Source: a virus. From it: a stretch of DNA of 48,539 bases. The position numbers and the translations under genes are program-made. Positions 4,714 to 20,510 of the stretch are shown one piece after another (the stretch's first letter is position 1; each line of letters begins with the position of its first letter). The stretch is taken from the IMG/VR virus record IMGVR_UViG_3300024520_000006, positions 1 through 48,539 of that record, one strand, 5' to 3'. The notes under the pieces were generated by a model. The model saw nothing but the letters and a program-made list of their open reading frames with translations, ran no database searches and was not told where the DNA came from.

Positions 4714-5829
4714 ATGGCTGTCCAGACTGGCCGGAGAGGAACCTATGATTCAACCGTAGGTACCCGCTTCGACATCGAGGACCTAGTCTATATGATTTCC
4801 CCCTTCGATGTGCCTTTCTTGGGAACCTATGGAACGGATCGTGGATCTGTCCTTGGTTCTGAGGAAACAGTTCAGACAAAGGTCGAATGGCTTGAGGATG
4901 AATTGGTTCCAGGTAGTGACGCTCTGAGTGGTGCGGCTGTTACAGCCGATGTCTATATCACCGTTGCTAACCGGACCTACTTCAAAGCGAACGACCTCAT
5001 CCGTATTGATGATGAGTATTTGAGGGTTACTGGAGACGGTACCACAGCAGATACGCTCCTTGTTGAGCGTTCCTGGGGTGCCCCTGTAGCAGCCTCTCAC
5101 GCTGATGCATCAACGGTCCTGATTTTGGGTACGCTACCTGTGGAAGGTGATGATCCGGTTTCCGGTATCAATTTCACCCGAACACAGCCGTATAACATTA
5201 CCCAGATTTATCAGGACGAGGTTGAGGTTACTCGTACTGAGGAAAAGAAAGGCAAGTATGGTGTCAACTCTGAAGCCGCTTATCAAATCGCTAAGAGGCT
5301 GAAAGAGGGCGCCATCAAGCTCGAAAGGAACATCATCCTGGGTACCAGGAATGATGATAGCTCTGCCAAGAGGCGTTCGATGGGTGGATTGGATTACTAC
5401 GTCAGTACTAATACCGATTCAACCACTACCATAATGGCTGCGGATAAACTGCTCGACCAGATGCAGTCCGTATTCAATACTGGTGGTAACACCGATCTCC
5501 TCGCTCTCGGTGGTACACAGAAGCGGAAGATTTCCGCATGGGATTCCTCTGACATCAGGTTGTCCAGGGACGAAAATGTCCGTGGCGCTGTTGTTGATTG
5601 GTTCGACTCTGACTTTGGAAGGATCTATATGGTCCTTAATCGTTGGGTGCCGCTCCGGTTCGCATTCGGCCTGGAACGTCAGTACATCTCCATGCAGTGG
5701 TTTGACCGCTTCTTCACTGAGGCCCTTGCTAAGACGGGTGACCGTCAGCAGTGGCAGGTGGTGCATGAAGTCAGCATGAAGGTCAAGAACGAGAAGGCAC
5801 ACTTCAAGTTCACGGCTCTCGAAGCATAG
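4714..5829 (+). CDS. Major capsid protein (HK97-fold; resembles the DUF5309/SU10-type family, from memory)
   Basis: 371 aa, SD GAAGGAGA upstream, follows the scaffold-like gene. Has the insertion LIRIDDEYLRVTGDGTTADTLLVERSWGAPVAASH that I associate with this capsid family, and is followed by a strong hairpin. Confidence 0.8.
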   Translation: MAVQTGRRGTYDSTVGTRFDIEDLVYMISPFDVPFLGTYGTDRGSVLGSEETVQTKVEWLEDELVPGSDALSGAAVTADVYITVANRTYFKANDLIRIDDEYLRVTGDGTTADTLLVERSWGAPVAASHADASTVLILGTLPVEGDDPVSGINFTRTQPYNITQIYQDEVEVTRTEEKKGKYGVNSEAAYQIAKRLKEGAIKLERNIILGTRNDDSSAKRRSMGGLDYYVSTNTDSTTTIMAADKLLDQMQSVFNTGGNTDLLALGGTQKRKISAWDSSDIRLSRDENVRGAVVDWFDSDFGRIYMVLNRWVPLRFAFGLERQYISMQWFDRFFTEALAKTGDRQQWQVVHEVSMKVKNEKAHFKFTALEA

Positions 5830-11402: not shown

Positions 11403-11612
11403 ATGAAGAAACTGTGGGATAGAATTTGGAATGCAGAACCTGTGATTTTCTCAGGTGCACTGGCTACTACATGGACAGGTGTCGTTACCTTCGATAAGGT
11501 ATCCGATGATTTCTCCATCAATGTATGGATATACGTTATAATGATTGCGGTAACTATATTCTTGACAGCGATCACTCGTAATCAGGTTGAGGTCTCCAAC
11601 GATTCAGAGTGA
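11403..11612 (+). CDS. 69-aa protein with two transmembrane helices (holin candidate)
   Basis: Two hydrophobic segments (VIFSGALATTWTGVVTF, VWIYVIMIAVTIFLTAI); last gene of the late arm, next to the endolysin. Confidence 0.6.
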   Translation: MKKLWDRIWNAEPVIFSGALATTWTGVVTFDKVSDDFSINVWIYVIMIAVTIFLTAITRNQVEVSNDSE

Positions 11613-11906
11613 ATCTAGCTCAGAATCAATATCCTGTATTACGTTTAAGGCGCCTCTCGTAGACGTTATCATTGCGGAAACGCCCCCTTGCTGTCGTATA
11701 CGCTGAAGCATTAACCGCTGTCTTGGTTTGAGCGTAGACTCTTTCCCAGGTACTTTGACTTCAAAGCCTATGAATCTACCTCTGTAGCATCCCATGATAT
11801 CTGGTAGACCAGATACCTGAGATGCTGATCCATGAATCTTGAACCAGAAACCGCCTCGGCGTTTCAAGGTTTTGATAATTAATGAGGTTAATTTGGTTTC
11901 ATTCAT
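11604..11906 (-). CDS. VRR-NUC / PD-(D/E)xK nuclease
   Basis: GLPDIMGCYRGRFIGFEVKVPG matches the VRR-NUC core (PD...E.K); its 3' end overlaps the convergent holin-like gene by 9 bp. Confidence 0.7.
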   Translation of the reverse strand: MNETKLTSLIIKTLKRRGGFWFKIHGSASQVSGLPDIMGCYRGRFIGFEVKVPGKESTLKPRQRLMLQRIRQQGGVSAMITSTRGALNVIQDIDSELDSL

Positions 11907-11982: not shown

Positions 11983-12011
11983 ATTCTATAGCTCATCTTC
12001 GTCGAGGTCAA
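11983..12011 (-). promoter_or_regulatory. Sigma70-like promoter candidate TTGACC-17-TAGAAT
   Basis: Minus-strand hexamers at 12011-12006 and 11988-11983, spacer exactly 17; lies in the last codons of the SSB-like gene, upstream of the hairpin and nuclease gene. Confidence 0.4.
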
Positions 12012-12723
12012 TCTCCTCATCGTCGTCCTCATCTTCGAGAGCTTCGAGGATTTCTGCTTTCTTCATGCCTTTTTTGTATACGCCTTGCTCTCTGGCATAG
12101 GCACGGAGCTCCTTGATTCCGAGGTCGTGGAAGTCTACTTCGTCATCTTCCTCATCCTCGTCGTCCCAGTCCTCATCTTCCTCGTCTTCCTCATCTTCTT
12201 CATCTTCCTCGTCGTCCTCTTCCTCATCTTCGTCAGAGTCTTCCGAGTCATCTTCCCAGTCGTCGTCTTCCTCTTCCTCCTCATCTTCTTCCTCTTCCTC
12301 AAGGAGAGCTTCGGGGAAAATGTCATTGATTTCGGAACGAGTCTTACCTTCATATTCCCCATCAACAACTTCAATACCACAGGTACGACCGACAAGGCGA
12401 TTGAGTGGGATATTCATGGTTGAGTCTTTGACTTTCACACCAAGTGACTCAAGGACTGCACGGAAGTTCCACAATGCCTTTGCTGTTAGCACATTGTTAT
12501 ACCAGAACCTTTGTCCTTCGTACTTCTCGTGATCCACGATATCGAAAGTCCACTTGACCATGGGGTCACCGGCTTTGGATTTCGTTGTCTCTACGCTAGA
12601 GACCTTTGCCTTGTAATTACCCTCTGCTATTCGGGCACGACGCTTGGCTCTGGATTCAACGCCCTTAAAATCAACCTTAACGACGTTCTTATCAGAGGTT
12701 CTTTTTGTTTTCTTAGCCATCAC
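11986..12723 (-). CDS. SSB-like protein (resembles DUF669 family) with ~55-residue poly-Asp/Glu tract and HeH/SAP-like motif
   Basis: The N-terminal 140 aa resemble phage DUF669 ssDNA-binding proteins (from memory). Then EEEEEDEEEEEDDDWEDDSEDSDEDEEEDDEEDEEDEEDEEDEDWDDEDEEDDE, then IKELRAYAREQGVYKKGMKKAEILEAL, then a second acidic tail. Adjacent to the Sak4-like ATPase. Confidence 0.65.
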   Translation of the reverse strand: MMAKKTKRTSDKNVVKVDFKGVESRAKRRARIAEGNYKAKVSSVETTKSKAGDPMVKWTFDIVDHEKYEGQRFWYNNVLTAKALWNFRAVLESLGVKVKDSTMNIPLNRLVGRTCGIEVVDGEYEGKTRSEINDIFPEALLEEEEEDEEEEEDDDWEDDSEDSDEDEEEDDEEDEEDEEDEEDEDWDDEDEEDDEVDFHDLGIKELRAYAREQGVYKKGMKKAEILEALEDEDDDEEIDLDEDEL

Positions 12724-13547
12724 TTACCTTTCTCGGCTCGTTCTATTTTCCTCACCAACTTGGGGATGGTGACATTGTAGGCATGACGAGGAAGCCACGG
12801 TTTGCTTGCGCCTAGTGGTGTTACTCGTTCGCCAACCAATAGGTCAGGGTCTCTGAAAGTTACCCCATACCTTATTGTGTCGGATTCTTCATCTATCTCC
12901 TCTCCTTCCTCATCTTCCAAAAATGTTCTTGCCAGAATGCTGGGCTTTTCGGTCACAAAACTGCGGATCGAAGGCGAGAAATCTGGTACCTTATCAACAC
13001 CAAGTTTCTCAGCTTGTTCCTCATTCAATGTGCGTTCCTGAGCGGTATAGATAAGGTGCATGTTTCTAGTCTGACACACTTCTTCCAATTCCTCCATGAA
13101 CTCAGTAATGAGAGTACCCAGCCTACCCCACGTTCGTTGATCTGTGGTACCAGGTGACCGTGCTTCATCCCTAGCTTCCTCATCTTTGTTGATATACCTG
13201 AGGCCTACTCTGACAAGGGCAGACATGGTATCTACTACCACAGTTTGTCTGTCGTGATCCGCATACCTCAGGTAGTGGATGAAGTCATAGGTGTCTTTCC
13301 AACGTAGTGGACGATACGTCCCATCTTTATTACGTGGAAATACCTGAAGGTCCTTCTGTTTACGGACAGTCATTGTGCCCTTCTCTGCCTCAAGTAAAAT
13401 AACTTTAGGGCCCGTACATGCAAGGGCTGTCTTACCTGACTTCACTCTACCCCATACCATCATATAGATAAGAGAGGGTGATGTGGTAACTGGTACTATT
13501 CTCGATTCAACCAGTTTGATTCTGCGTTCCCGTTTACTGTCTGCCAA
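12720..13547 (-). CDS. Sak4-like RecA-fold ATPase (AAA_24-type recombination protein)
   Basis: Walker A in MVWGRVKSGKTALA, Walker-B-like TVVVDTMS; ATGA overlap with the downstream gene; classic ATPase/SSB/exonuclease neighbourhood. Confidence 0.7.
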   Translation of the reverse strand: MADSKRERRIKLVESRIVPVTTSPSLIYMMVWGRVKSGKTALACTGPKVILLEAEKGTMTVRKQKDLQVFPRNKDGTYRPLRWKDTYDFIHYLRYADHDRQTVVVDTMSALVRVGLRYINKDEEARDEARSPGTTDQRTWGRLGTLITEFMEELEEVCQTRNMHLIYTAQERTLNEEQAEKLGVDKVPDFSPSIRSFVTEKPSILARTFLEDEEGEEIDEESDTIRYGVTFRDPDLLVGERVTPLGASKPWLPRHAYNVTIPKLVRKIERAEKGK

Positions 13548-14547
13548 GTTTCCTCCCTTCCAGGTAAGTACTCGGCTGATACTTTGTTCTCCTCATAAAC
13601 TTTCCGTCTCCTCCCATGAGTTCTACCATACAAAGTTCGTGGTAATCACAATCCCAATCACAGGACATAATCATGGTACGAGTCCAAGGGTCCTCATCAT
13701 TATCTTCCATGAAGTCATACCAAGCGGCCATCTCTTGCATGGTATAGTCAAGCTCCTCGACCAGACGATTCTCTATTTCCTTGGGCTTAACTATCTTGGT
13801 CCTCTTGAAATACTGATTGGAACCCTTGAGCGTACGGAGTTGTGTCTTCCATCTGTCTGGTATGTTTGGCCAGTCTTCCGAATAGTATTCTTTGAGGAAG
13901 GTAGCAAGGGTGTAGTAGTCAGTGTCCATACGCCGCTTACTGATTGACCCATCCTGATTGATTGTCGGTATCGTTGGTGGCTTCGTCTTGATGTAGTTGT
14001 ACCCAAATGTATCTACCTCTAAGCCTGCGATACGCAAACCCCAAGGGTATAACCCAGATTGTAGATCCTGCATCCTGAACTCAGCGGATGGCACAGACTT
14101 CGTGGTCTTATGGTCCCACACTATTGTTTGCTTTAGTACCTTGTCATAAACTATGAGATCAGGCTTGAAAGAAAACTCATGGCCATTAGGGTGCTCGACT
14201 ATGAAGGTCTCCTCAACATGGAGAATCTCCCAGTCCTTGTCATCGTCCTTCCAGTGATAGAGGTAGGCTTTAATCATCCGCTCTACTTCACTGGGTAGAT
14301 CCCCGTAGAACTCTCGTTCCTCAAGTAGAAGGGTATTGAATTTCTTAGTCAAAGCCTTATGGGCTATTCGCCAATCCCTACCCATGTAATGGTACTGGAG
14401 ACATTCGTGCATCCATGTACCTCTACGAAGTGGCAAGGATGGGAGTCTTGTTTCCAAACCTTCGACCATACTGTAATAGTACTGCCGCTTACATCGCCTA
14501 AACTTCTTAGCCGACGATGGAGATATTTTGATGAGGGTTTCTTCCAT
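13534..14547 (-). CDS. Cas4/RecB-family PD-(D/E)xK exonuclease with Fe-S cysteines
   Basis: FKPDLIVYD...IVWDHKTTK nuclease core; N-terminal Cys (RCKRQYYY) plus C-terminal CDWDCDYHELC, as in Cas4/AddB-type clusters. Confidence 0.75.
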   Translation of the reverse strand: MEETLIKISPSSAKKFRRCKRQYYYSMVEGLETRLPSLPLRRGTWMHECLQYHYMGRDWRIAHKALTKKFNTLLLEEREFYGDLPSEVERMIKAYLYHWKDDDKDWEILHVEETFIVEHPNGHEFSFKPDLIVYDKVLKQTIVWDHKTTKSVPSAEFRMQDLQSGLYPWGLRIAGLEVDTFGYNYIKTKPPTIPTINQDGSISKRRMDTDYYTLATFLKEYYSEDWPNIPDRWKTQLRTLKGSNQYFKRTKIVKPKEIENRLVEELDYTMQEMAAWYDFMEDNDEDPWTRTMIMSCDWDCDYHELCMVELMGGDGKFMRRTKYQPSTYLEGRKLGRQ

Positions 14548-14606: not shown

Positions 14607-17030
14607 TTACAGTTCAATGGCCCCTTCAGACCAGAACTTTCCAACCTTGACATCAGCCTTAATCGGCACGGTCAATAGGCATTCAAACTCTTTTTCCAGG
14701 GGAAGGTTTTCCATCACCTCTACAATACGAGGAATGACATCATCCAGTGCTTCTTCCCGAATCTCAAAGAGGATAGAGTCATGAACCGTCCCAATTACTT
14801 TAGCCACAGATTCATCAAGCTCACCGTTTAGTTGGACCATGGACATCAACATCATATCCGATGCCATAGACTGGACTGGTGAATTGATAGCCTGACGTTC
14901 AGCCTCCCCTCGGATTCCTTGTTCCTTAGAGTTGATGTCCCACAGATGTCTCTTCCTACCTATGGGTGACATAACGTACTGCCTGCGTTGGGCGGCTCTC
15001 CTCTGTCTACCATGCCATGGGTACAAACCTCTAAAGTTCTGGAAGAATGAGTCCCGATAATTCTTTGCCTCTGCATCGGTAACATCTATACCGTAGTTGG
15101 TCTTGGAATACTCTACGAATTTCCGGTAACCCATTCCATATACGAACCCGAAGTTGACAGCCTTGGCCTTCTTTCTAATCTCCTGTGTAATTTCAGGTCG
15201 AGAGAGGCCAGTCGTTGCCATAGCTGTTTCGGTATGGATGTCCCGACCGAGGTGGTAGGCTCGTAGCATTGTTTTATCCTGGGAAACGTGAGCCACAATT
15301 CTGAGTTCGACTTGGGAATAATCCGCCTCAACAATTCGCCATCCCCTACGACCTCCAATGATGCCTCGTATAAAGGTGTCTCTAGGGACTTGTTGCAGGT
15401 TAGGGTTAGAGGATGAGAGTCTACCTGTAACTGTATGGAACGGCTTGAAGGTAGAGTGTAAACGACCTCTTCCGTCCATTCGCTGAGCCCAGTTCTCAAA
15501 GTAACGAGAACGGTATCCATTCCATTTTCTATATTCGAGGATGGCATCTATCACTCCACTTTCATCTAGATCATTGAGCCTGACTAGTACGTCCTCTGCT
15601 GTAGAGGGTTGGCCAGACGGTGTTGCTTTCAAAACAGGGAACTCCATCTTGCTATACAGAAGGCGTCCCAATTGCTGTGGACTGTTCGGATTGAATGGTC
15701 TCATTTCTGAAGGAACAAACTCTTGGATCAGTTCAACCTGTTCCTCAATGTTTTTCTCGGTCTTGGCTCGGCGTGCATTGAACTTCTCTCTGTGGATAGG
15801 TACGCCCCGTATTTCTACATCAGTTAAGGTATTCACAGCGGGCATCAGTAGCTTACGAAAGAGCCTGTTTGATAGAGGCTCAGCCTTCAGTTTCTTTTCA
15901 AGCTTGAGGCCTAATCTCAAGGTGTAATCTGCATCCTGCCCACCATACTCAACCAAATCATTCAATGGGGTAAGGTTAGTATGTTTCTTATTGAGGAGGT
16001 CTTTGTAAGCAGGGGCACCAAGATATACCTGCGATGCAAACCCAAGATCCTTACGGTTGTTTTCATCCAGTGCATAGATAGCACCCATGGTATCGAAGTA
16101 TTGCCGCACGTTAATACCCATAGCATGGAACCATTCTTCATCGAACTTCCCATTGTGCATGTACCATTTACCAGACTCAATGTAAGGTTTGAGAAGGTCT
16201 ATCACCTTCTGTGGGTTTTTCCATCGAGAACCTTCAGTCCACAGTGGTATGACATAGGCTCGACCAGGGGTAACCGATATGTTAATTGCGGATAGCTTGG
16301 CAGTTGAATCCCAAGGATAGAGACCACCGAACTCATGTTCCGACCAAGTCTCAAGGTCTATTGCTCCTCGCTTTGCCTTCTTGAGGTCTGCAATCAGGGC
16401 GCCAAGAGTTTCCTTGTTATTGACCGCTATACTACGGGTAGCTGGAATACCTTCTTCGTCATACACTAGCCTCTTGAATACTAGCAGGGCCCCCCTAAAG
16501 GCGTCTAGGTATCTTGGATTACGGAGGACGGCGGCTGGCTGTAGAGCAGCCACGAAGGTAGCACCTCCGTATTCATAGCTTGTACCGTTACGGCTCGTAA
16601 TCCCTTTGAGGCCCAGTGTCGCCTTGAGACCGCTGTTTCCAAGAGCGAGTCCAAACTTTGGCCTGATTCGTTGAACCTCTCTCTGGAGATAGAGATCCGA
16701 ACAGACTCGTATTTCCCTGTCCGTAGGTGAGCGGTAATCTTCAGGTCTACATTTAACCGCTCCGGATATGAAGAAGTTGGTTTTGTCAAGGCCTATCCTT
16801 TCTAGTTCTTCCCATAGGAAGCTTGATTCTACGATCGACGGGTCAGTAGCCACAACCATAAGACGTCCATGAGAGTCGTCTTTAGTAGGGATGGTTATGG
16901 GTGAACATATCTCATAAGCCTCCTCATGGAGAGGACACTCAGAACACTCGGGATCCTCTAACTTTGTTAGTGTGGATCTCAGCTTCCCAAAGGAGGTCTT
17001 TGCCTTCTTGTTTTCGGTACTCGTTCCCAT
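14607..17030 (-). CDS. Family-A DNA polymerase with 3'-5' exonuclease and an N-terminal degenerate family-4 UDG-like domain
   Basis: Pol motifs ADYSQVELRIVAH (A), RKKAKAVNFGFVYGMG (B), TVHDSILFE (C); exo motif AIDLETWS. N-terminal ~190 aa align to family-4 UDG (CSECPL...AVKCRP...VC...QPAAVLRNP). Strong SD GGGAGGTGA precedes the ATG. Confidence 0.9.
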   Translation of the reverse strand: MGTSTENKKAKTSFGKLRSTLTKLEDPECSECPLHEEAYEICSPITIPTKDDSHGRLMVVATDPSIVESSFLWEELERIGLDKTNFFISGAVKCRPEDYRSPTDREIRVCSDLYLQREVQRIRPKFGLALGNSGLKATLGLKGITSRNGTSYEYGGATFVAALQPAAVLRNPRYLDAFRGALLVFKRLVYDEEGIPATRSIAVNNKETLGALIADLKKAKRGAIDLETWSEHEFGGLYPWDSTAKLSAINISVTPGRAYVIPLWTEGSRWKNPQKVIDLLKPYIESGKWYMHNGKFDEEWFHAMGINVRQYFDTMGAIYALDENNRKDLGFASQVYLGAPAYKDLLNKKHTNLTPLNDLVEYGGQDADYTLRLGLKLEKKLKAEPLSNRLFRKLLMPAVNTLTDVEIRGVPIHREKFNARRAKTEKNIEEQVELIQEFVPSEMRPFNPNSPQQLGRLLYSKMEFPVLKATPSGQPSTAEDVLVRLNDLDESGVIDAILEYRKWNGYRSRYFENWAQRMDGRGRLHSTFKPFHTVTGRLSSSNPNLQQVPRDTFIRGIIGGRRGWRIVEADYSQVELRIVAHVSQDKTMLRAYHLGRDIHTETAMATTGLSRPEITQEIRKKAKAVNFGFVYGMGYRKFVEYSKTNYGIDVTDAEAKNYRDSFFQNFRGLYPWHGRQRRAAQRRQYVMSPIGRKRHLWDINSKEQGIRGEAERQAINSPVQSMASDMMLMSMVQLNGELDESVAKVIGTVHDSILFEIREEALDDVIPRIVEVMENLPLEKEFECLLTVPIKADVKVGKFWSEGAIEL

Positions 17031-17355
17031 AGTTCACCTCCCTTATTCCTGCATTGATAACTAATTGGGCACAGGAAATACAAGGTAAGTGAGTGGTATA
17101 TAAGACCGAACCATTGGTAGATATTCCATGCTTGGCTGCGAACACAATGGCGTTTGCCTCAGCATGTACTGACCTATCACAAGCTGTAAGGTCATCGTGT
17201 GTGCAATGAAGTAACCCAGCAGGTGCCCCATTGTATCCTGTGGAAACGATTCTCTTGTCCTGTACCAGTACGGCACCTACATGCAGGCGTTTACAGGTAG
17301 AGTACATCGCCACCACTTTAGCTATATCTAAATAGGCAATGTCATCCATGCTCAT
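16939..17355 (-). CDS. dCMP (deoxycytidylate) deaminase
   Basis: HAEANAI ... PCISCA zinc motifs with typical spacing. The ORF-track start at 17382 is a TTG, so the first ATG (MSMDD) at 17355 is preferred. The 3' end overlaps the polymerase start by 92 nt. Confidence 0.85.
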   Translation of the reverse strand: MSMDDIAYLDIAKVVAMYSTCKRLHVGAVLVQDKRIVSTGYNGAPAGLLHCTHDDLTACDRSVHAEANAIVFAAKHGISTNGSVLYTTHLPCISCAQLVINAGIREVNYGNEYRKQEGKDLLWEAEIHTNKVRGSRVF

Positions 17356-18091
17356 TTTGTAACCTTTCAATTTCGGGCTCAAAGATATGGAGGGAAGATA
17401 TGTGCATAACGAGTGGTCCCATATCCACGTTCATCATGTGTGCCAAGTGTTGTTGAAGGCGGGCGGTCATATACACATCGTCCCTGAAATAGCGGAACCA
17501 ATCACATGACCTCATGTAGTACACAACCTTGAGTTTGCCATCCCTAAGAAGGAAGTGATATCCAAGAGTACATGGCACTCTCTCACCCAGTACATCAGCG
17601 GCATACAAATCCTCAGGAAACCACACTGGTAGATATGCTTGGCGTGTATGGGGTCTCATCATAAGGAGAGACTTGAGGTTATCTAGTGTGCCATAATCAA
17701 ATCGAATACCTGCCCTGTGAGGAGGATAATATCTCTCCATATAGGTATGGCTAAATAGCCCTCCACCCTTGTGTTCCTCTACTCCCTGTTCATACCAAGG
17801 CCAGTTCTTGTACTGTTCACCAGGGTTCAAAGGGTTACCAGACATACGTTCTTGGAAGTGATCCTCTGCCCATGGGAGATTTGGCTTAATGGAAAATTGG
17901 AGTTGGTCTACAGTACTGGGTACTCTGTTCCATTTGAAAGAAACATCTTCCAACTCAAAGGTCTTAGTCATAGGTAAATCAGGATCACGGAATGACTGCC
18001 ACTCACCTACATCTACAACCTCACCATGTTCTATGAAGTCAAGGCCTATATTCTCAAGTATTCTACCGAACCAGTCTTCCCTATAGTACAT
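17342..18091 (-). CDS. ThyA-superfamily pyrimidine 5-modifying enzyme, dCMP-hydroxymethylase-like (Asp at the base-selecting position)
   Basis: RQAYLPVWFPEDL, nucleophile VPCTLGY, LLRDGKLKVVYYMRSCDWFRYFRDD, SSLHIF. Cys-to-Asp spacing is 31 residues, as in T4 gp42 (C148-D179) and E. coli ThyA (C146-N177), both recalled from memory. Confidence 0.75.
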   Translation of the reverse strand: MYYREDWFGRILENIGLDFIEHGEVVDVGEWQSFRDPDLPMTKTFELEDVSFKWNRVPSTVDQLQFSIKPNLPWAEDHFQERMSGNPLNPGEQYKNWPWYEQGVEEHKGGGLFSHTYMERYYPPHRAGIRFDYGTLDNLKSLLMMRPHTRQAYLPVWFPEDLYAADVLGERVPCTLGYHFLLRDGKLKVVYYMRSCDWFRYFRDDVYMTARLQQHLAHMMNVDMGPLVMHISSLHIFEPEIERLQNEHG

Positions 18092-18650
18092 TCTTTACCC
18101 TTCCGTGTACTCCCAAGAAACTACCCCTTGGGTTATCAAACCACCACCCTTGTAAGTTGTGGCGCTTAATGAATCTGGTTGTATCACTATCCTCTATTGA
18201 GTCATGGAATGTATCGTGTACCAGTAACATAGAATGAGGTGGCGAGTGATTGAACCACAGACTCAACTCTTCCTTCCTACGTGAAGGTTCTGAATCCAGA
18301 ATTACAAAGTCCGCTGTCACCATATCTAAGTAACCCGGTTGGCCTAACTCATAATTAAACTGTGGAGATGGAGGAACATTCTCCACCATATCTAACCATC
18401 TCTCCTGATGGTCAAAGGTTATTAGTCTCTGAGTATCTTTCATAACACTTAGGACCCTACGAGTTACATACCCCTGACCTAGTCCTGTCTCTATGATAGT
18501 GGCTGTATCATGGAGGGATTTTGTTACATACTTAGCCACATTACAGAACTCCAACTCAGGGCTCATGATATTCCAAGCATTGAATCCTGTCCACTTACCT
18601 GAGAACTCCACTTCATCTACCAATGGGGCCTCGTTAACCCAAGGATTCAT
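18081..18650 (-). CDS. Class-I SAM-dependent methyltransferase-fold protein, substrate unknown
   Basis: Motif I IIETGLGQGYVT, acidic post-beta-2 TFDHQE, ADFVILDSEP; resembles small-molecule O-methyltransferase-type (Methyltransf_24-like) proteins; overlaps both neighbours. Confidence 0.6.
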   Translation of the reverse strand: MNPWVNEAPLVDEVEFSGKWTGFNAWNIMSPELEFCNVAKYVTKSLHDTATIIETGLGQGYVTRRVLSVMKDTQRLITFDHQERWLDMVENVPPSPQFNYELGQPGYLDMVTADFVILDSEPSRRKEELSLWFNHSPPHSMLLVHDTFHDSIEDSDTTRFIKRHNLQGWWFDNPRGSFLGVHGRVKNVL

Positions 18651-19479
18651 AGTAACCTTCTACCTTCCCAAAGTTTAGCTCTCCCACTGGAGTAGAAGGA
18701 ACGAAAATCCCCTGTTGATATTCCTCATAGCGTCTGCGGATTCGTTTGAATGGCCCGTACAGTTCTTCCTCTACTGTCTTACCATCTCGTTCAAACTCCA
18801 GAACTTTTTGCCACCATCGGTCAATGGATTTCCAAGTAGGAGTAACGGGCTCACACAAAGTCAGTTCTTCCATCAAATCTGGCTGAGTATAAAGGTAAGG
18901 GAGACATTTAAAACTATGGAGTTGCATTACGTCCAAGTGCCACTGGAGACGAATACGCTCGGGCGAACCTTCACTGATTTCCCTTGCGAGAACATGGACA
19001 AGAGCCATGTCCAAGCCAAGCATGTAGGCATTGTAACTAACCCTAGAGTGTATGGTGAGCGTAGGTATGACCTTGTCATTTCTATCTGATCCTCGGAAGG
19101 TGGCTGCCAACAAACAATTACCCCACTTATGCTTTCGGTCGGAGCGGGTAACGTGCTTGAAGTGGACGTTTGTGATAACTCCGTTCCTACCCTTATCTTC
19201 GAGGATGATTCGTGACCGCTTGATAAACTCGGCAGTTTCATATCCGTCGAGGTATTCCCTTGTAAGTCTCGTCCAGCGGGATGGGTTAAGCCATACTTCC
19301 TGGAGGTCAAATTCGTATGCCATTGAGTCAGCCTCCAAAATGACATTGTTAAGGTTTGTACCGATACCCAGTTCAAGGTCTACCTCCTCTTTATCTAAAT
19401 GCCAGCGGGTAACATCATGCCACAGTTGAGTTTGATCTTTGGCTCGGAGTACTTTAAAGCTCATGGCTAGACCACTCAT
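18634..19479 (-). CDS. ~281-aa uncharacterised enzyme, possibly a second, highly divergent ThyA-fold protein
   Basis: KWGNCLLAATF ... TLTIHSRVSYNAYMLGLDMALVHVLA can be laid over ThyA APCHAFFQF ... [27 protein letters not shown] by eye. Start is uncertain (ATGs at 19491, 19479, 19464); 19479 has GGTGGTGA upstream. Confidence 0.45.
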   Translation of the reverse strand: MSGLAMSFKVLRAKDQTQLWHDVTRWHLDKEEVDLELGIGTNLNNVILEADSMAYEFDLQEVWLNPSRWTRLTREYLDGYETAEFIKRSRIILEDKGRNGVITNVHFKHVTRSDRKHKWGNCLLAATFRGSDRNDKVIPTLTIHSRVSYNAYMLGLDMALVHVLAREISEGSPERIRLQWHLDVMQLHSFKCLPYLYTQPDLMEELTLCEPVTPTWKSIDRWWQKVLEFERDGKTVEEELYGPFKRIRRRYEEYQQGIFVPSTPVGELNFGKVEGYYESLG

Positions 19480-19876
19480 GGTCACCACCATGGTTAAGGT
19501 CTAGGGTGCAGTACTGATAAGGCCCATAGCCTCTGAAATTTCCACAAGCAAATGGCTTTCCAGTCTCTGGATACTTGATCCAGTCCCTGTCCTTTACCTC
19601 TCCCCATGCAGACTCAAGGCAACCCGATAATTGATAGCCATTAGTGTTGCAGTAACTGGCAAGGTAGATCATGATGTCACCAATTGCGTCTACTGCTGCT
19701 GCTCGGTGCTCCTGTGAGGTGCCTCTGATCTGTTGCTGTGCTTTAAGGTGTGCGTGTGCTAGCTCTCCGACTTCTTCAGTCAACCCTAATAGCGCATCGT
19801 GCGCCTGTTGATTGGGGAAATTATGACTCAACCACTCCAGATGCTCATTCTGAAATTCATGTAGGTCATGCATCAT
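19454..19876 (-). CDS. mazG: MazG-like all-alpha nucleoside triphosphate pyrophosphohydrolase
   Basis: LTEEVGELAHA and AVDAIGDIMIYL metal-binding helices, about 140 aa; overlaps both neighbours. Confidence 0.8.
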   Translation of the reverse strand: MMHDLHEFQNEHLEWLSHNFPNQQAHDALLGLTEEVGELAHAHLKAQQQIRGTSQEHRAAAVDAIGDIMIYLASYCNTNGYQLSGCLESAWGEVKDRDWIKYPETGKPFACGNFRGYGPYQYCTLDLNHGGDHEWSSHEL

Positions 19877-20510
19877 TGATGATCTCCTTACCTTTGTCTA
19901 TGTAGTATTGGTCAGGCTGGTCTACTGGAAACAAACCTTTTGGCTGGAAAAGTGATTCAATCCTGTGGGCTACATACCTCACCCGAGATTCACCATAATC
20001 CCAGAATCCCATTTGATATCCGTCGTACTTCATGAGGAGAGAGACCATGTTGTAGGTCGCAGCTACCTTCTCCCTATGCTGATAGATGTGGTTACCTCTG
20101 GGATCAGTATTACTACCACGATATGGCTTATTGGTGGAAGTCATAATAGTAAGAGTATCAGGATGCTTTAACCTGTGGAGAGATTGGAGAGGGTTACGAA
20201 GGCGAGTGAATCCTCGTATCACAGGACCATATATAAGCTCGGATATTTCAGGTGTGCGATCCAGTATATAAATCTTCCCACTCCTATGGGACCGCTCTAT
20301 ATGTTGGGCATTCCATTCGTTCCAAGTTTCATCCCATTCCTTCATCCTACCTGATGGTGATTTGACGTACTGGCATAGGTCGGGACCCATCCACCCAGCC
20401 AAAGCATAGGCAAGGGTTGTCTTTCCACTGGAGTCGGGACCTTCTAGGATAATTGTTGCCACGTTCTGCTCACTTTCTGAGATTCGTAGTGTAATATACC
20501 ACTGTTTCAT
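19866..20510 (-). CDS. P-loop (d)NMP kinase, thymidylate-kinase-like
   Basis: Walker A ILEGPDSSGKTT, LDRTPEISELIYG resembles the Tmk DR(Y/F)..S motif; ATGA overlap with the SNF2 gene. Confidence 0.7.
   Translation of the reverse strand: MKQWYITLRISESEQNVATIILEGPDSSGKTTLAYALAGWMGPDLCQYVKSPSGRMKEWDETWNEWNAQHIERSHRSGKIYILDRTPEISELIYGPVIRGFTRLRNPLQSLHRLKHPDTLTIMTSTNKPYRGSNTDPRGNHIYQHREKVAATYNMVSLLMKYDGYQMGFWDYGESRVRYVAHRIESLFQPKGLFPVDQPDQYYIDKGKEIINDA

Follow-up and report, generated by a model that had tools for sequence, protein, structure and literature searches.

The locus considered here raises the question of what a phage makes with a thymidylate synthase (TS) homologue that carries the base-selecting residue of a cytosine-specific enzyme. 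The gene occupies positions 17342-18091 of a 48,539-nucleotide stretch of viral DNA, IMG/VR record IMGVR_UViG_3300024520_000006 (the whole stretch is called the window below). A first-pass annotation made from the letters of the sequence had described the product as a ThyA homologue with Asp, not Asn, at the base-selecting position, and had placed it in the branch of the T4 deoxycytidine monophosphate (dCMP) hydroxymethylase gp42. Analysis of the protein, its homologues and its gene neighbourhood points to a cytosine nucleotide as the expected substrate and, tentatively, to hydroxymethylation as the reaction; a particular closeness to gp42 was not found.

The 249-residue open reading frame (ORF) reported at these positions is real but is encoded by the minus strand; read on the plus strand, the same interval is riddled with stop codons. 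Its product matches the Pfam family Thymidylat_synt (PF00303) with E=1.6e-10 and 41 bits, against a gathering cut-off of 24.3. An AlphaFold2 model, proposed in the first-pass annotation as a check, was obtained with a predicted local distance difference test score (pLDDT) of 88. When the PDB was searched with this model by Foldseek, the 50 best matches were all TS-family proteins, with E-values down to 4e-12. The leading matches were AfhB (best E-value), Enterococcus faecalis TS and MilA (highest TM-score, 0.68). MilA was also the best sequence match of the TS homologue among solved structures (phmmer against PDB chains, E=4e-10, 43 bits). Comparison by hhalign with seven reference TS-family proteins gave a probability of 99.2% and E=2.4e-19 over 223 columns.

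The catalytic residues were examined next to those of the reference enzymes. As had been reported, the nucleophile can be read directly from the sequence as Cys174 within VPCTLGY, and Asp205, the second Asp of FRDDV, follows exactly 31 residues downstream. The reference positions given in that annotation agree with the database records. C146 and N177 are as in the RefSeq entry for E. coli K-12 ThyA, which is identical to the sequence that served for the numbering; in the T4 gp42 record both C148 and D179 fall within LIRDKKINAVVNMRSNDVVFGFRND and within MRSNDVVFGFRND, and the record also contains LIRDKKINAVVNMRS and GSLHVY. Conservation was counted in two sets, the 120 closest metagenomic database homologues and a group of 78 distinct IMG/VR and isolate sequences whose identity reaches down to ~40%; the latter were aligned with hmmalign to count the signature residues. 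Cys174 (E. coli C146), the phosphate-binding residues Arg194 (R166) and Arg150 (R126), Tyr117 (Y94) and His235 (H207) are invariant in the second set (78/78). Asp197, which corresponds to the pterin ligand D169, is invariant in both (120/120 and 78/78). The retained catalytic and nucleotide-binding residues point to an active C5-modifying enzyme, probably folate-dependent.

Asp205 fell on the column of E. coli N177 in every alignment made, namely the phmmer alignments with MilA and E. faecalis TS, two MAFFT alignments that included ThyA and gp42, a profile search of the PDB and hhalign. In all of these the N177-equivalent position is occupied by Asp and not by Asn. The same column holds D179 of T4 gp42 as well as the corresponding Asp in MilA and in AfhB. 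Asp is found there in all of the closest homologues (120/120) and in all of the IMG/VR and isolate sequences (78/78); because it is invariant across these homologue sets, it is, on the evidence of the alignments, not a chance substitution. The exchange N177D switches the preference of the enzyme from deoxyuridine monophosphate (dUMP) to dCMP (PMC8670742, PMC13326640), and the rule that Asp at 177 denotes cytosine has already been applied to virome mining (PMC8670742, PMC13326640, bioRxiv 10.1101/2024.12.05.627091). With Asp at the base-selecting position, a cytosine nucleotide rather than dUMP would be expected as substrate, and we regard a cytosine nucleotide as likely; synthesis of deoxythymidine monophosphate (dTMP) is not expected of this enzyme.

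A second pair of positions bears on the sugar. In MilA, the exchange A176S/K133R shifts the enzyme from cytidine monophosphate (CMP) toward dCMP (as cited in PMC6400193). By residue count on the phmmer alignment with MilA, Ser195 and Arg150 stand at the positions of A176 and K133, that is, in the dCMP-preferring states, and a deoxynucleotide is thus the expected substrate. It is thus probable that a 5-modified cytosine is incorporated into the DNA of the phage.

The nature of the modification was approached through the published product signatures. A hydrophobic residue at position 143 (E. coli numbering) goes with a methyl product and Asp or Glu with a hydroxymethyl product (PMC13326640, PMC6400193, PMC8670742). 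The hydroxymethylase signature derived from the T4 structure consists of Asp or Glu three residues before the Cys together with Ser two residues before the Tyr, and T4 D145N makes no 5-hydroxymethyl-dCMP (5hm-dCMP) (PMC6400193). The exchange D169N marks flavin-dependent 5-hydroxy-dCMP synthases (PMC13326640). A table of reference residues was built from fetched sequences with MAFFT (Table 1). In the query family the position of L143, three residues before the Cys, is occupied by Arg (Arg171 in the TS homologue) and the position two residues before the Tyr by His (His115); both are invariant (78/78). At position 147 the TS homologue has Thr175. After the H207 equivalent only 15 residues follow in the TS homologue, whereas the proven methylases EcThyA, Xp12 and PaMx74 carry 58-64. 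As judged from these residues, the family follows the cytosine rule and carries none of the methyl, hydroxymethyl and hydroxyl signatures. The earlier proposal that the enzyme acts on dCMP and makes no dTMP is thus supported by the Asp at N177.

Table 1. Diagnostic residues of TS-superfamily proteins, in E. coli ThyA numbering
Protein	143	147	177	Residues after H207	Other features
EcThyA	L	H	N	58	
Xp12 and PaMx74 (5-methylcytosine phages)	N	P	D	64	DHFR adjoins deaminase
T4 gp42	D	T	D	31	
YuA gp17 (putative dUMP hydroxymethylase)	D	N	N	137	
AXL3 gp28	D	T	D	56	
AfhB-like JK42 protein	E	T	D	15	D169N
Query family	R (78/78)	T/S	D	11-29	Asp169 kept; Phe at 209; Gln at 127

Comparison with the characterised systems led to the same result. 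The similarity of the TS homologue amounts to 44 bits with Xp12 TS, 43 with MilA, and 35 with both gp42 and E. faecalis TS; none of gp42, MilA, Xp12 TS and ThyA stands much nearer to the family than the others. Placement in a gp42-like branch was not upheld, since similarity to gp42 is no better than to Xp12, MilA or E. faecalis TS and the hydroxymethylase signature is missing. The marks that had been cited for this branch, the size match, LLRDGKL and SLHIF, are features of the whole superfamily, and SAHVF occurs in AfhB. In a tblastn search with gp42, isolate homologues of the query family were absent among the matches listed.

T4 gp42 (EC 2.1.2.8; PDB 1B5E, 6L18) resembles the TS homologue in its fold, the Cys nucleophile, the Asp at +31, the Thr after the Cys, the retained Asp169 equivalent, the absence of a TS-type C-terminal tail and its length (246 against 249 residues); its pathway also includes a dCTPase and a deoxynucleoside monophosphate (dNMP) kinase. 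The two proteins differ in that only 28% of residues are identical, over 72 residues (35 bits), that Asp145 and Ser94 of gp42 are Arg171 and His115 here, and that Tyr209 and Arg127 are replaced here by Phe and Gln. In T4, moreover, the deaminase gene is not adjacent, td is separate and no second TS-fold paralogue lies nearby. The Xp12 and PaMx74 enzymes share the Asp at N177, the deaminase-family gene directly after the TS gene and a nucleotide pyrophosphohydrolase upstream, and in viromes an enrichment for modified cytosine is seen among contigs of this type (bioRxiv 10.1101/2024.12.05.627091). They are, however, 289-298 residues long, keep the canonical C-terminal region, carry Asn at position 143 and Pro at position 147, and are encoded with a dihydrofolate reductase (DHFR) next to the deaminase; Xp12 TS is 28% identical to the TS homologue over 138 residues.

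MilA, the CMP 5-hydroxymethylase of Streptomyces rimofaciens (PDB 5B6D, 5JNH), has the Asp at N177 and the Thr after the Cys in addition to its sequence and structural match described above. In contrast to the TS homologue, it has Asp at the L143 position, prefers the ribonucleotide by means of Ala176 and Lys133 (Ser and Arg in the TS homologue), and is a bacterial antibiotic-pathway enzyme of 325-342 residues. The flavin-dependent 5-hydroxy-dCMP synthase AfhB / RB69 gp48 (PDB 9IQC, 9IQU; PMC13326640) is short and tail-less like the TS homologue, gives the top Foldseek E-value, and has Asp at N177, Thr at 147 and Phe at 209. Its diagnostic D169N is missing here, Asp197 being invariant, and it has Glu at 143 where the family has Arg. 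Stenotrophomonas phage AXL3, whose DNA resists cleavage at all G/C-containing restriction sites (PMC7504290), was considered as a characterised relative and set aside: its TS belongs to another clade, with Asp at the L143 position and 28% identity, and the neighbouring genes are unrelated.

The genomic context, on which the first-pass annotation was silent, includes an adjacent deaminase, a pyrophosphatase, a kinase and a second TS-fold gene. They belong to a co-directional string of overlapping genes in the order kinase, pyrophosphatase, 285-residue protein, methyltransferase-like ORF, TS, deaminase and PolA (Table 2). The order of the module recurs in Serratia phage Serbin, in Mycobacterium phages NoShow and Muddy and in a 48.9-kb metagenomic contig. 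In Serbin, NoShow and Muddy, the genes syntenic to the kinase and to the MazG-like pyrophosphatase are annotated as thymidylate kinase and dUTPase, respectively. Context was counted in 80 IMG/VR loci encoding the TS family, of which 76 had enough upstream sequence for the second TS-fold gene to be counted. The deaminase lies directly downstream of the TS gene, followed by PolA, at about 74 of the 80 loci. A phmmer search of the same loci with the DHFR of Xp12 and PaMx74 gave no DHFR (0/80), and in Pfam scans of the larger ORFs of the window neither DHFR nor ThyX nor a second canonical ThyA came to light; in Xp12 and PaMx74, by comparison, frd adjoins cd. With its kinase, pyrophosphatase, TS, deaminase and PolA, the conserved module has parallels in the pathways of T4 and Xp12. 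It also matches the architecture of virome contigs in which modified cytosine is enriched, where deaminase genes are found together with Thymidylat_synt, PRA-PH, DNA_pol_A and DNA_pol_A_exo1 (bioRxiv 10.1101/2024.12.05.627091).

The 285-residue protein encoded upstream has no match in Pfam or NCBIfam. Its AlphaFold2 model has a pLDDT of 94, and in a Foldseek search of the PDB all of the top matches belonged to the TS family, AfhB (E=1.4e-6) being followed by MilA, T4 dCH and TS. A search of BFVD returned uncharacterised viral proteins first and then TS and dCMP hydroxymethylases. The fold match is moderate (TM 0.45-0.56), and profile-profile sequence comparison of this protein with the TS family detected nothing, so that the relationship rests on the predicted structure and on the spacing of motifs. 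A TS fold is predicted for the protein with high confidence. Cys122 (within WGNC), Ser145-Arg146, Tyr149, Asp157, His188 and Phe190 are kept in 92/92 sequences. Arg and Asp lie 11 residues apart in this paralogue as in the TS homologue, Asp and His 31 and 30 residues apart, respectively, and both motifs end in LH-x-F. A Tyr occupies the position of the pterin-binding Asp169 of TS, a hint that the protein uses another cofactor or does without one. The paralogue is 86% identical to its nearest relative and the TS homologue 79%. At 66 of the 76 loci the paralogue gene is found within 2.5 kb (<=2.5 kb) upstream of the TS gene, and in related contigs it often overlaps it. In all 85 cultured phages, including Muddy (gp47), it is annotated as hypothetical.

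Taken together, the reading that we prefer, at a probability of about 0.4, is a dCMP-specific TS-superfamily enzyme that acts in a pre-replicative cytosine-replacement pathway with 5hm-dCMP as its product. In such a pathway Cys174 would add to C6 of dCMP, the N3/N4 face of which Asp205 would read. Methylene-tetrahydrofolate would donate a one-carbon unit to C5, and elimination of the folate would leave an exocyclic methylene intermediate. Water would then capture the methylene non-reductively to yield 5hm-dCMP, with no reduction to methyl. The MazG-like pyrophosphatase would convert dCTP to dCMP and so keep dCTP out of the DNA, the phage kinase would phosphorylate the modified dCMP, PolA would incorporate the modified nucleotide, and the deaminase would feed the thymidine branch. 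The upstream TS-fold paralogue may pair with the TS homologue or carry out a second step on the cytosine nucleotide. Non-reductive capture by water appears the most likely outcome because of the tail-less, polar active site (Arg171, His115, Thr175) and the lack of DHFR. The Thr or Ser at 147, a feature shared with gp42, MilA and AfhB, and the general likeness to the last two incline the choice to hydroxymethyl, which as the product is itself held tentatively.

Several points weigh against this assignment. Hydroxymethylation is held to require an acidic residue at the third position ahead of the Cys (PMC6400193), where this family has the invariant Arg171. The best NCBIfam match of the TS homologue is the short archaeal TS family TIGR03283; these are tail-less proteins annotated as methylating TS, and the argument from the tail is weakened by them. 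Little weight can be placed on the missing phage DHFR, since that of the host might suffice. The equivalent of Glu58 depends on the alignment, being E76 with hhalign and one MAFFT run and N71 in another MAFFT run; E76 is probably the counterpart of the catalytic Glu58. A literature search on DNA modification in Muddy, NoShow, Serbin, Gordonia phages or STP12 gave nothing relevant. Lastly, of seven deaminase-linked, Asp-type TS homologues from viromes, five yielded 5-methyl-dC, and not 5hm-dC, when tested in E. coli (bioRxiv 10.1101/2024.12.05.627091).

This last result is a precedent, from the same kind of virome context, for a different reading, in which the enzyme would be a dCMP methyltransferase forming 5-methyl-dCMP as in Xp12 and PaMx74. 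The deaminase would then be selective for 5-methyl-dC nucleotides, as the deaminases linked to the virome TS homologues were (bioRxiv 10.1101/2024.12.05.627091), and would turn part of the 5-methyl-dCTP/5-methyl-dCMP pool into thymidine nucleotides, the pair supplying both 5-methylcytosine and T. The overlapping order of TS and deaminase, seen at the ~74 of 80 loci, is that of Xp12 and PaMx74, the L143 position has no acidic residue, and the Pfam scans of the window showed no further ThyA or ThyX as a source of dTMP. Methylation, with conversion of part of the methylated pool by the deaminase, is a strong rival, though we consider it somewhat less likely than hydroxymethylation. Identity to Xp12 TS is low, the ~60-residue C-terminal segment of all proven methylases is missing in the family, position 147 has Thr or Ser instead of Pro or His, Arg171 is charged and not hydrophobic, and the adjacent DHFR of Xp12 and PaMx74 was never seen at the 80 loci. 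It is very unlikely that the gene encodes an ordinary TS or a dUMP hydroxymethylase, with dUMP supplied by its deaminase neighbour. Deamination of dCMP and then the TS reaction form the classical route to dTMP, and the homologues are all named 'thymidylate synthase' in the database; yet Asn177 has become Asp in every family member, and His147, Leu143, Arg127, Tyr209 and the C-terminal tail are altered as well. The scores of the TS homologue with the NCBIfam TS equivalogs are far under the cut-offs (46 against 175, and 31 against 327), and the putative dUMP hydroxymethylase YuA gp17 retains the Asn.

The paralogue opens a further alternative, namely that the two TS-fold proteins form one system, as a heterodimer or as consecutive enzymes, and that the C5 substituent is neither methyl, hydroxymethyl nor hydroxyl. 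A nucleophile other than water might capture the exocyclic methylene, for example, or the paralogue might process 5hm-dCMP further. In favour of this, the family has Arg at 143, Asp at 169 and no tail, a combination that fits none of the three signatures (PMC13326640, PMC6400193). The invariance of Cys122, Arg146, Asp157, His188 and Phe190 of the paralogue with their TS-like spacing, its conservation above that of the TS gene, the overlap and co-occurrence of the two genes, and the Tyr at its Asp169 position all speak in the same direction. This support is purely inferential, however, and the fold match is moderate with a null profile-profile comparison. About 10 of the 76 loci are without a detectable paralogue, so that the TS enzyme is apparently able to work alone. 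A joint system of this kind, and a substituent of either sort just mentioned, is therefore judged improbable.

The family is widespread. At E<=1e-30 it comprises ~189 clusters at 50% identity, and it occurs in 284 IMG/VR stretches and in cultured actinophages and proteobacterial phages, about a hundred together. Mycobacterium phage Muddy and M. abscessus phages are among its carriers, as are NoShow, FF47, Serbin and the Gordonia phages GTE2 and Troje. In Muddy (KF024728.2 32651-40460) genes 44-50 comprise the entire module: gp46, named 'thymidylate synthase', carries RVPC and the Asp; gp45, 'hypothetical', is of the dCMP-deaminase family and 50% identical to the deaminase of the window; and gp47, likewise 'hypothetical', is the TS-fold paralogue.

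That Asp in place of Asn177 marks cytosine is already known, and taken by itself the finding merely exchanges, as a matter of routine, the name thymidylate synthase for that of a dCMP-modifying enzyme. What goes beyond it is an uncharacterised family that lies outside the current product signatures and is nearly always paired with a TS-fold protein called "hypothetical" in every public record. Its defining features are Arg in place of L143, a His two positions ahead of the catalytic Tyr, the absence of a tail and Asp at N177. We think it unlikely, on present evidence, that the family makes an undescribed C5 modification of cytosine, or a known one by a new mechanism, jointly with the paralogue. 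If it did, cultured carriers, including the therapeutic mycobacteriophage Muddy, would harbour an unrecognised non-canonical cytosine. Modified cytosine in the DNA of these carriers would bear on restriction evasion, host range, behaviour in sequencing and polymerase chain reaction, and the engineering of therapeutic phage genomes.

Table 2. Features of the window discussed in the text
Feature	Coordinates	Strand	Length	Basis
P-loop dNMP/thymidylate-kinase-like protein	19866..20510	minus		PHROG 761 thymidylate kinase, E=6.8e-13
MazG-like all-alpha NTP pyrophosphatase, candidate dCTPase/dUTPase	19454..19876	minus		PHROG 715 MazG-like, E=1.9e-11
Second TS-fold paralogue (predicted)	18634..19491	minus	285 aa (281 aa in database entry)	PHROG 13667 'unknown function'
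Methyltransferase-like (class-I) ORF	18081..18650	minus	189 aa	Methyltransf_24, E=1.6e-5, 26.1 bits vs cut-off 26.3
TS-family ORF, without C-terminal tail	17342..18091	minus	249 aa	Thymidylat_synt (PF00303)
dCMP/cytidine deaminase family	16939..17382	minus		Pfam dCMP_cyt_deam_1, E=1.8e-23; PHROG dCMP deaminase
Family A DNA polymerase (PolA), 3'-5' exonuclease and N-terminal uracil-DNA glycosylase (UDG)-superfamily domain	14607..17030	minus		DNA_pol_A, 2.9e-97; DNA_pol_A_exo1, 7.9e-16; UDG, 2.3e-12
Recombination set	11604..11906, 11986..12723, 12720..13547, 13534..14547	minus		
Major capsid protein, SU10 type	4714..5829	plus		Pfam SU10_MCP, E=5e-68

The methyltransferase-like ORF sits between the two TS-fold genes and overlaps each of them. 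It was considered as a conserved tailoring enzyme, for example for O-methylation of 5-hydroxymethylcytosine, and rejected: only 18 homologues were found, it is present at none of the 80 related loci, and elsewhere it stands in unrelated contexts, beside glycosyltransferases or among the early genes of other contigs. It is an accessory gene and not part of the conserved module.

The probable start of the deaminase is the ATG at 17355, preceded by GAAAGG, and the gene overlaps the stop codon of the TS gene by 14 nucleotides (nt; 17342..17355). At its 3' end it overlaps the annotated start of PolA by 92 nt (16939..17030). As read from the sequence, these overlaps suggest either translational coupling along the gene string or a PolA start further downstream. 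The UDG-superfamily domain makes up the N-terminal ~175 residues of PolA, and the same fusion is present in a related metagenomic contig. By eye, it has ATDPS and QPAA in place of the family-4 UDG motifs GE.PG and HP.., and with motifs so diverged the domain may be inactive or re-purposed.

When 8 kb around the TS gene were compared with phage genomes by megablast, no match was obtained; the phage is thus without a close sequenced relative. The SU10-type major capsid protein is encoded on the opposite strand to the module, and the window, which is as long as the longest contig carrying the TS protein, may represent an entire phage genome or almost all of one. Downstream of PolA lies the recombination set, which consists of a PD-(D/E)XK-type exonuclease, a Sak4-like ATPase, a protein resembling single-stranded DNA-binding proteins and a weak match to Hjc/RecU-like resolvases. 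Serbin, NoShow and related contigs share this set, and the nucleotide module is thus embedded in a conserved replication-recombination block.

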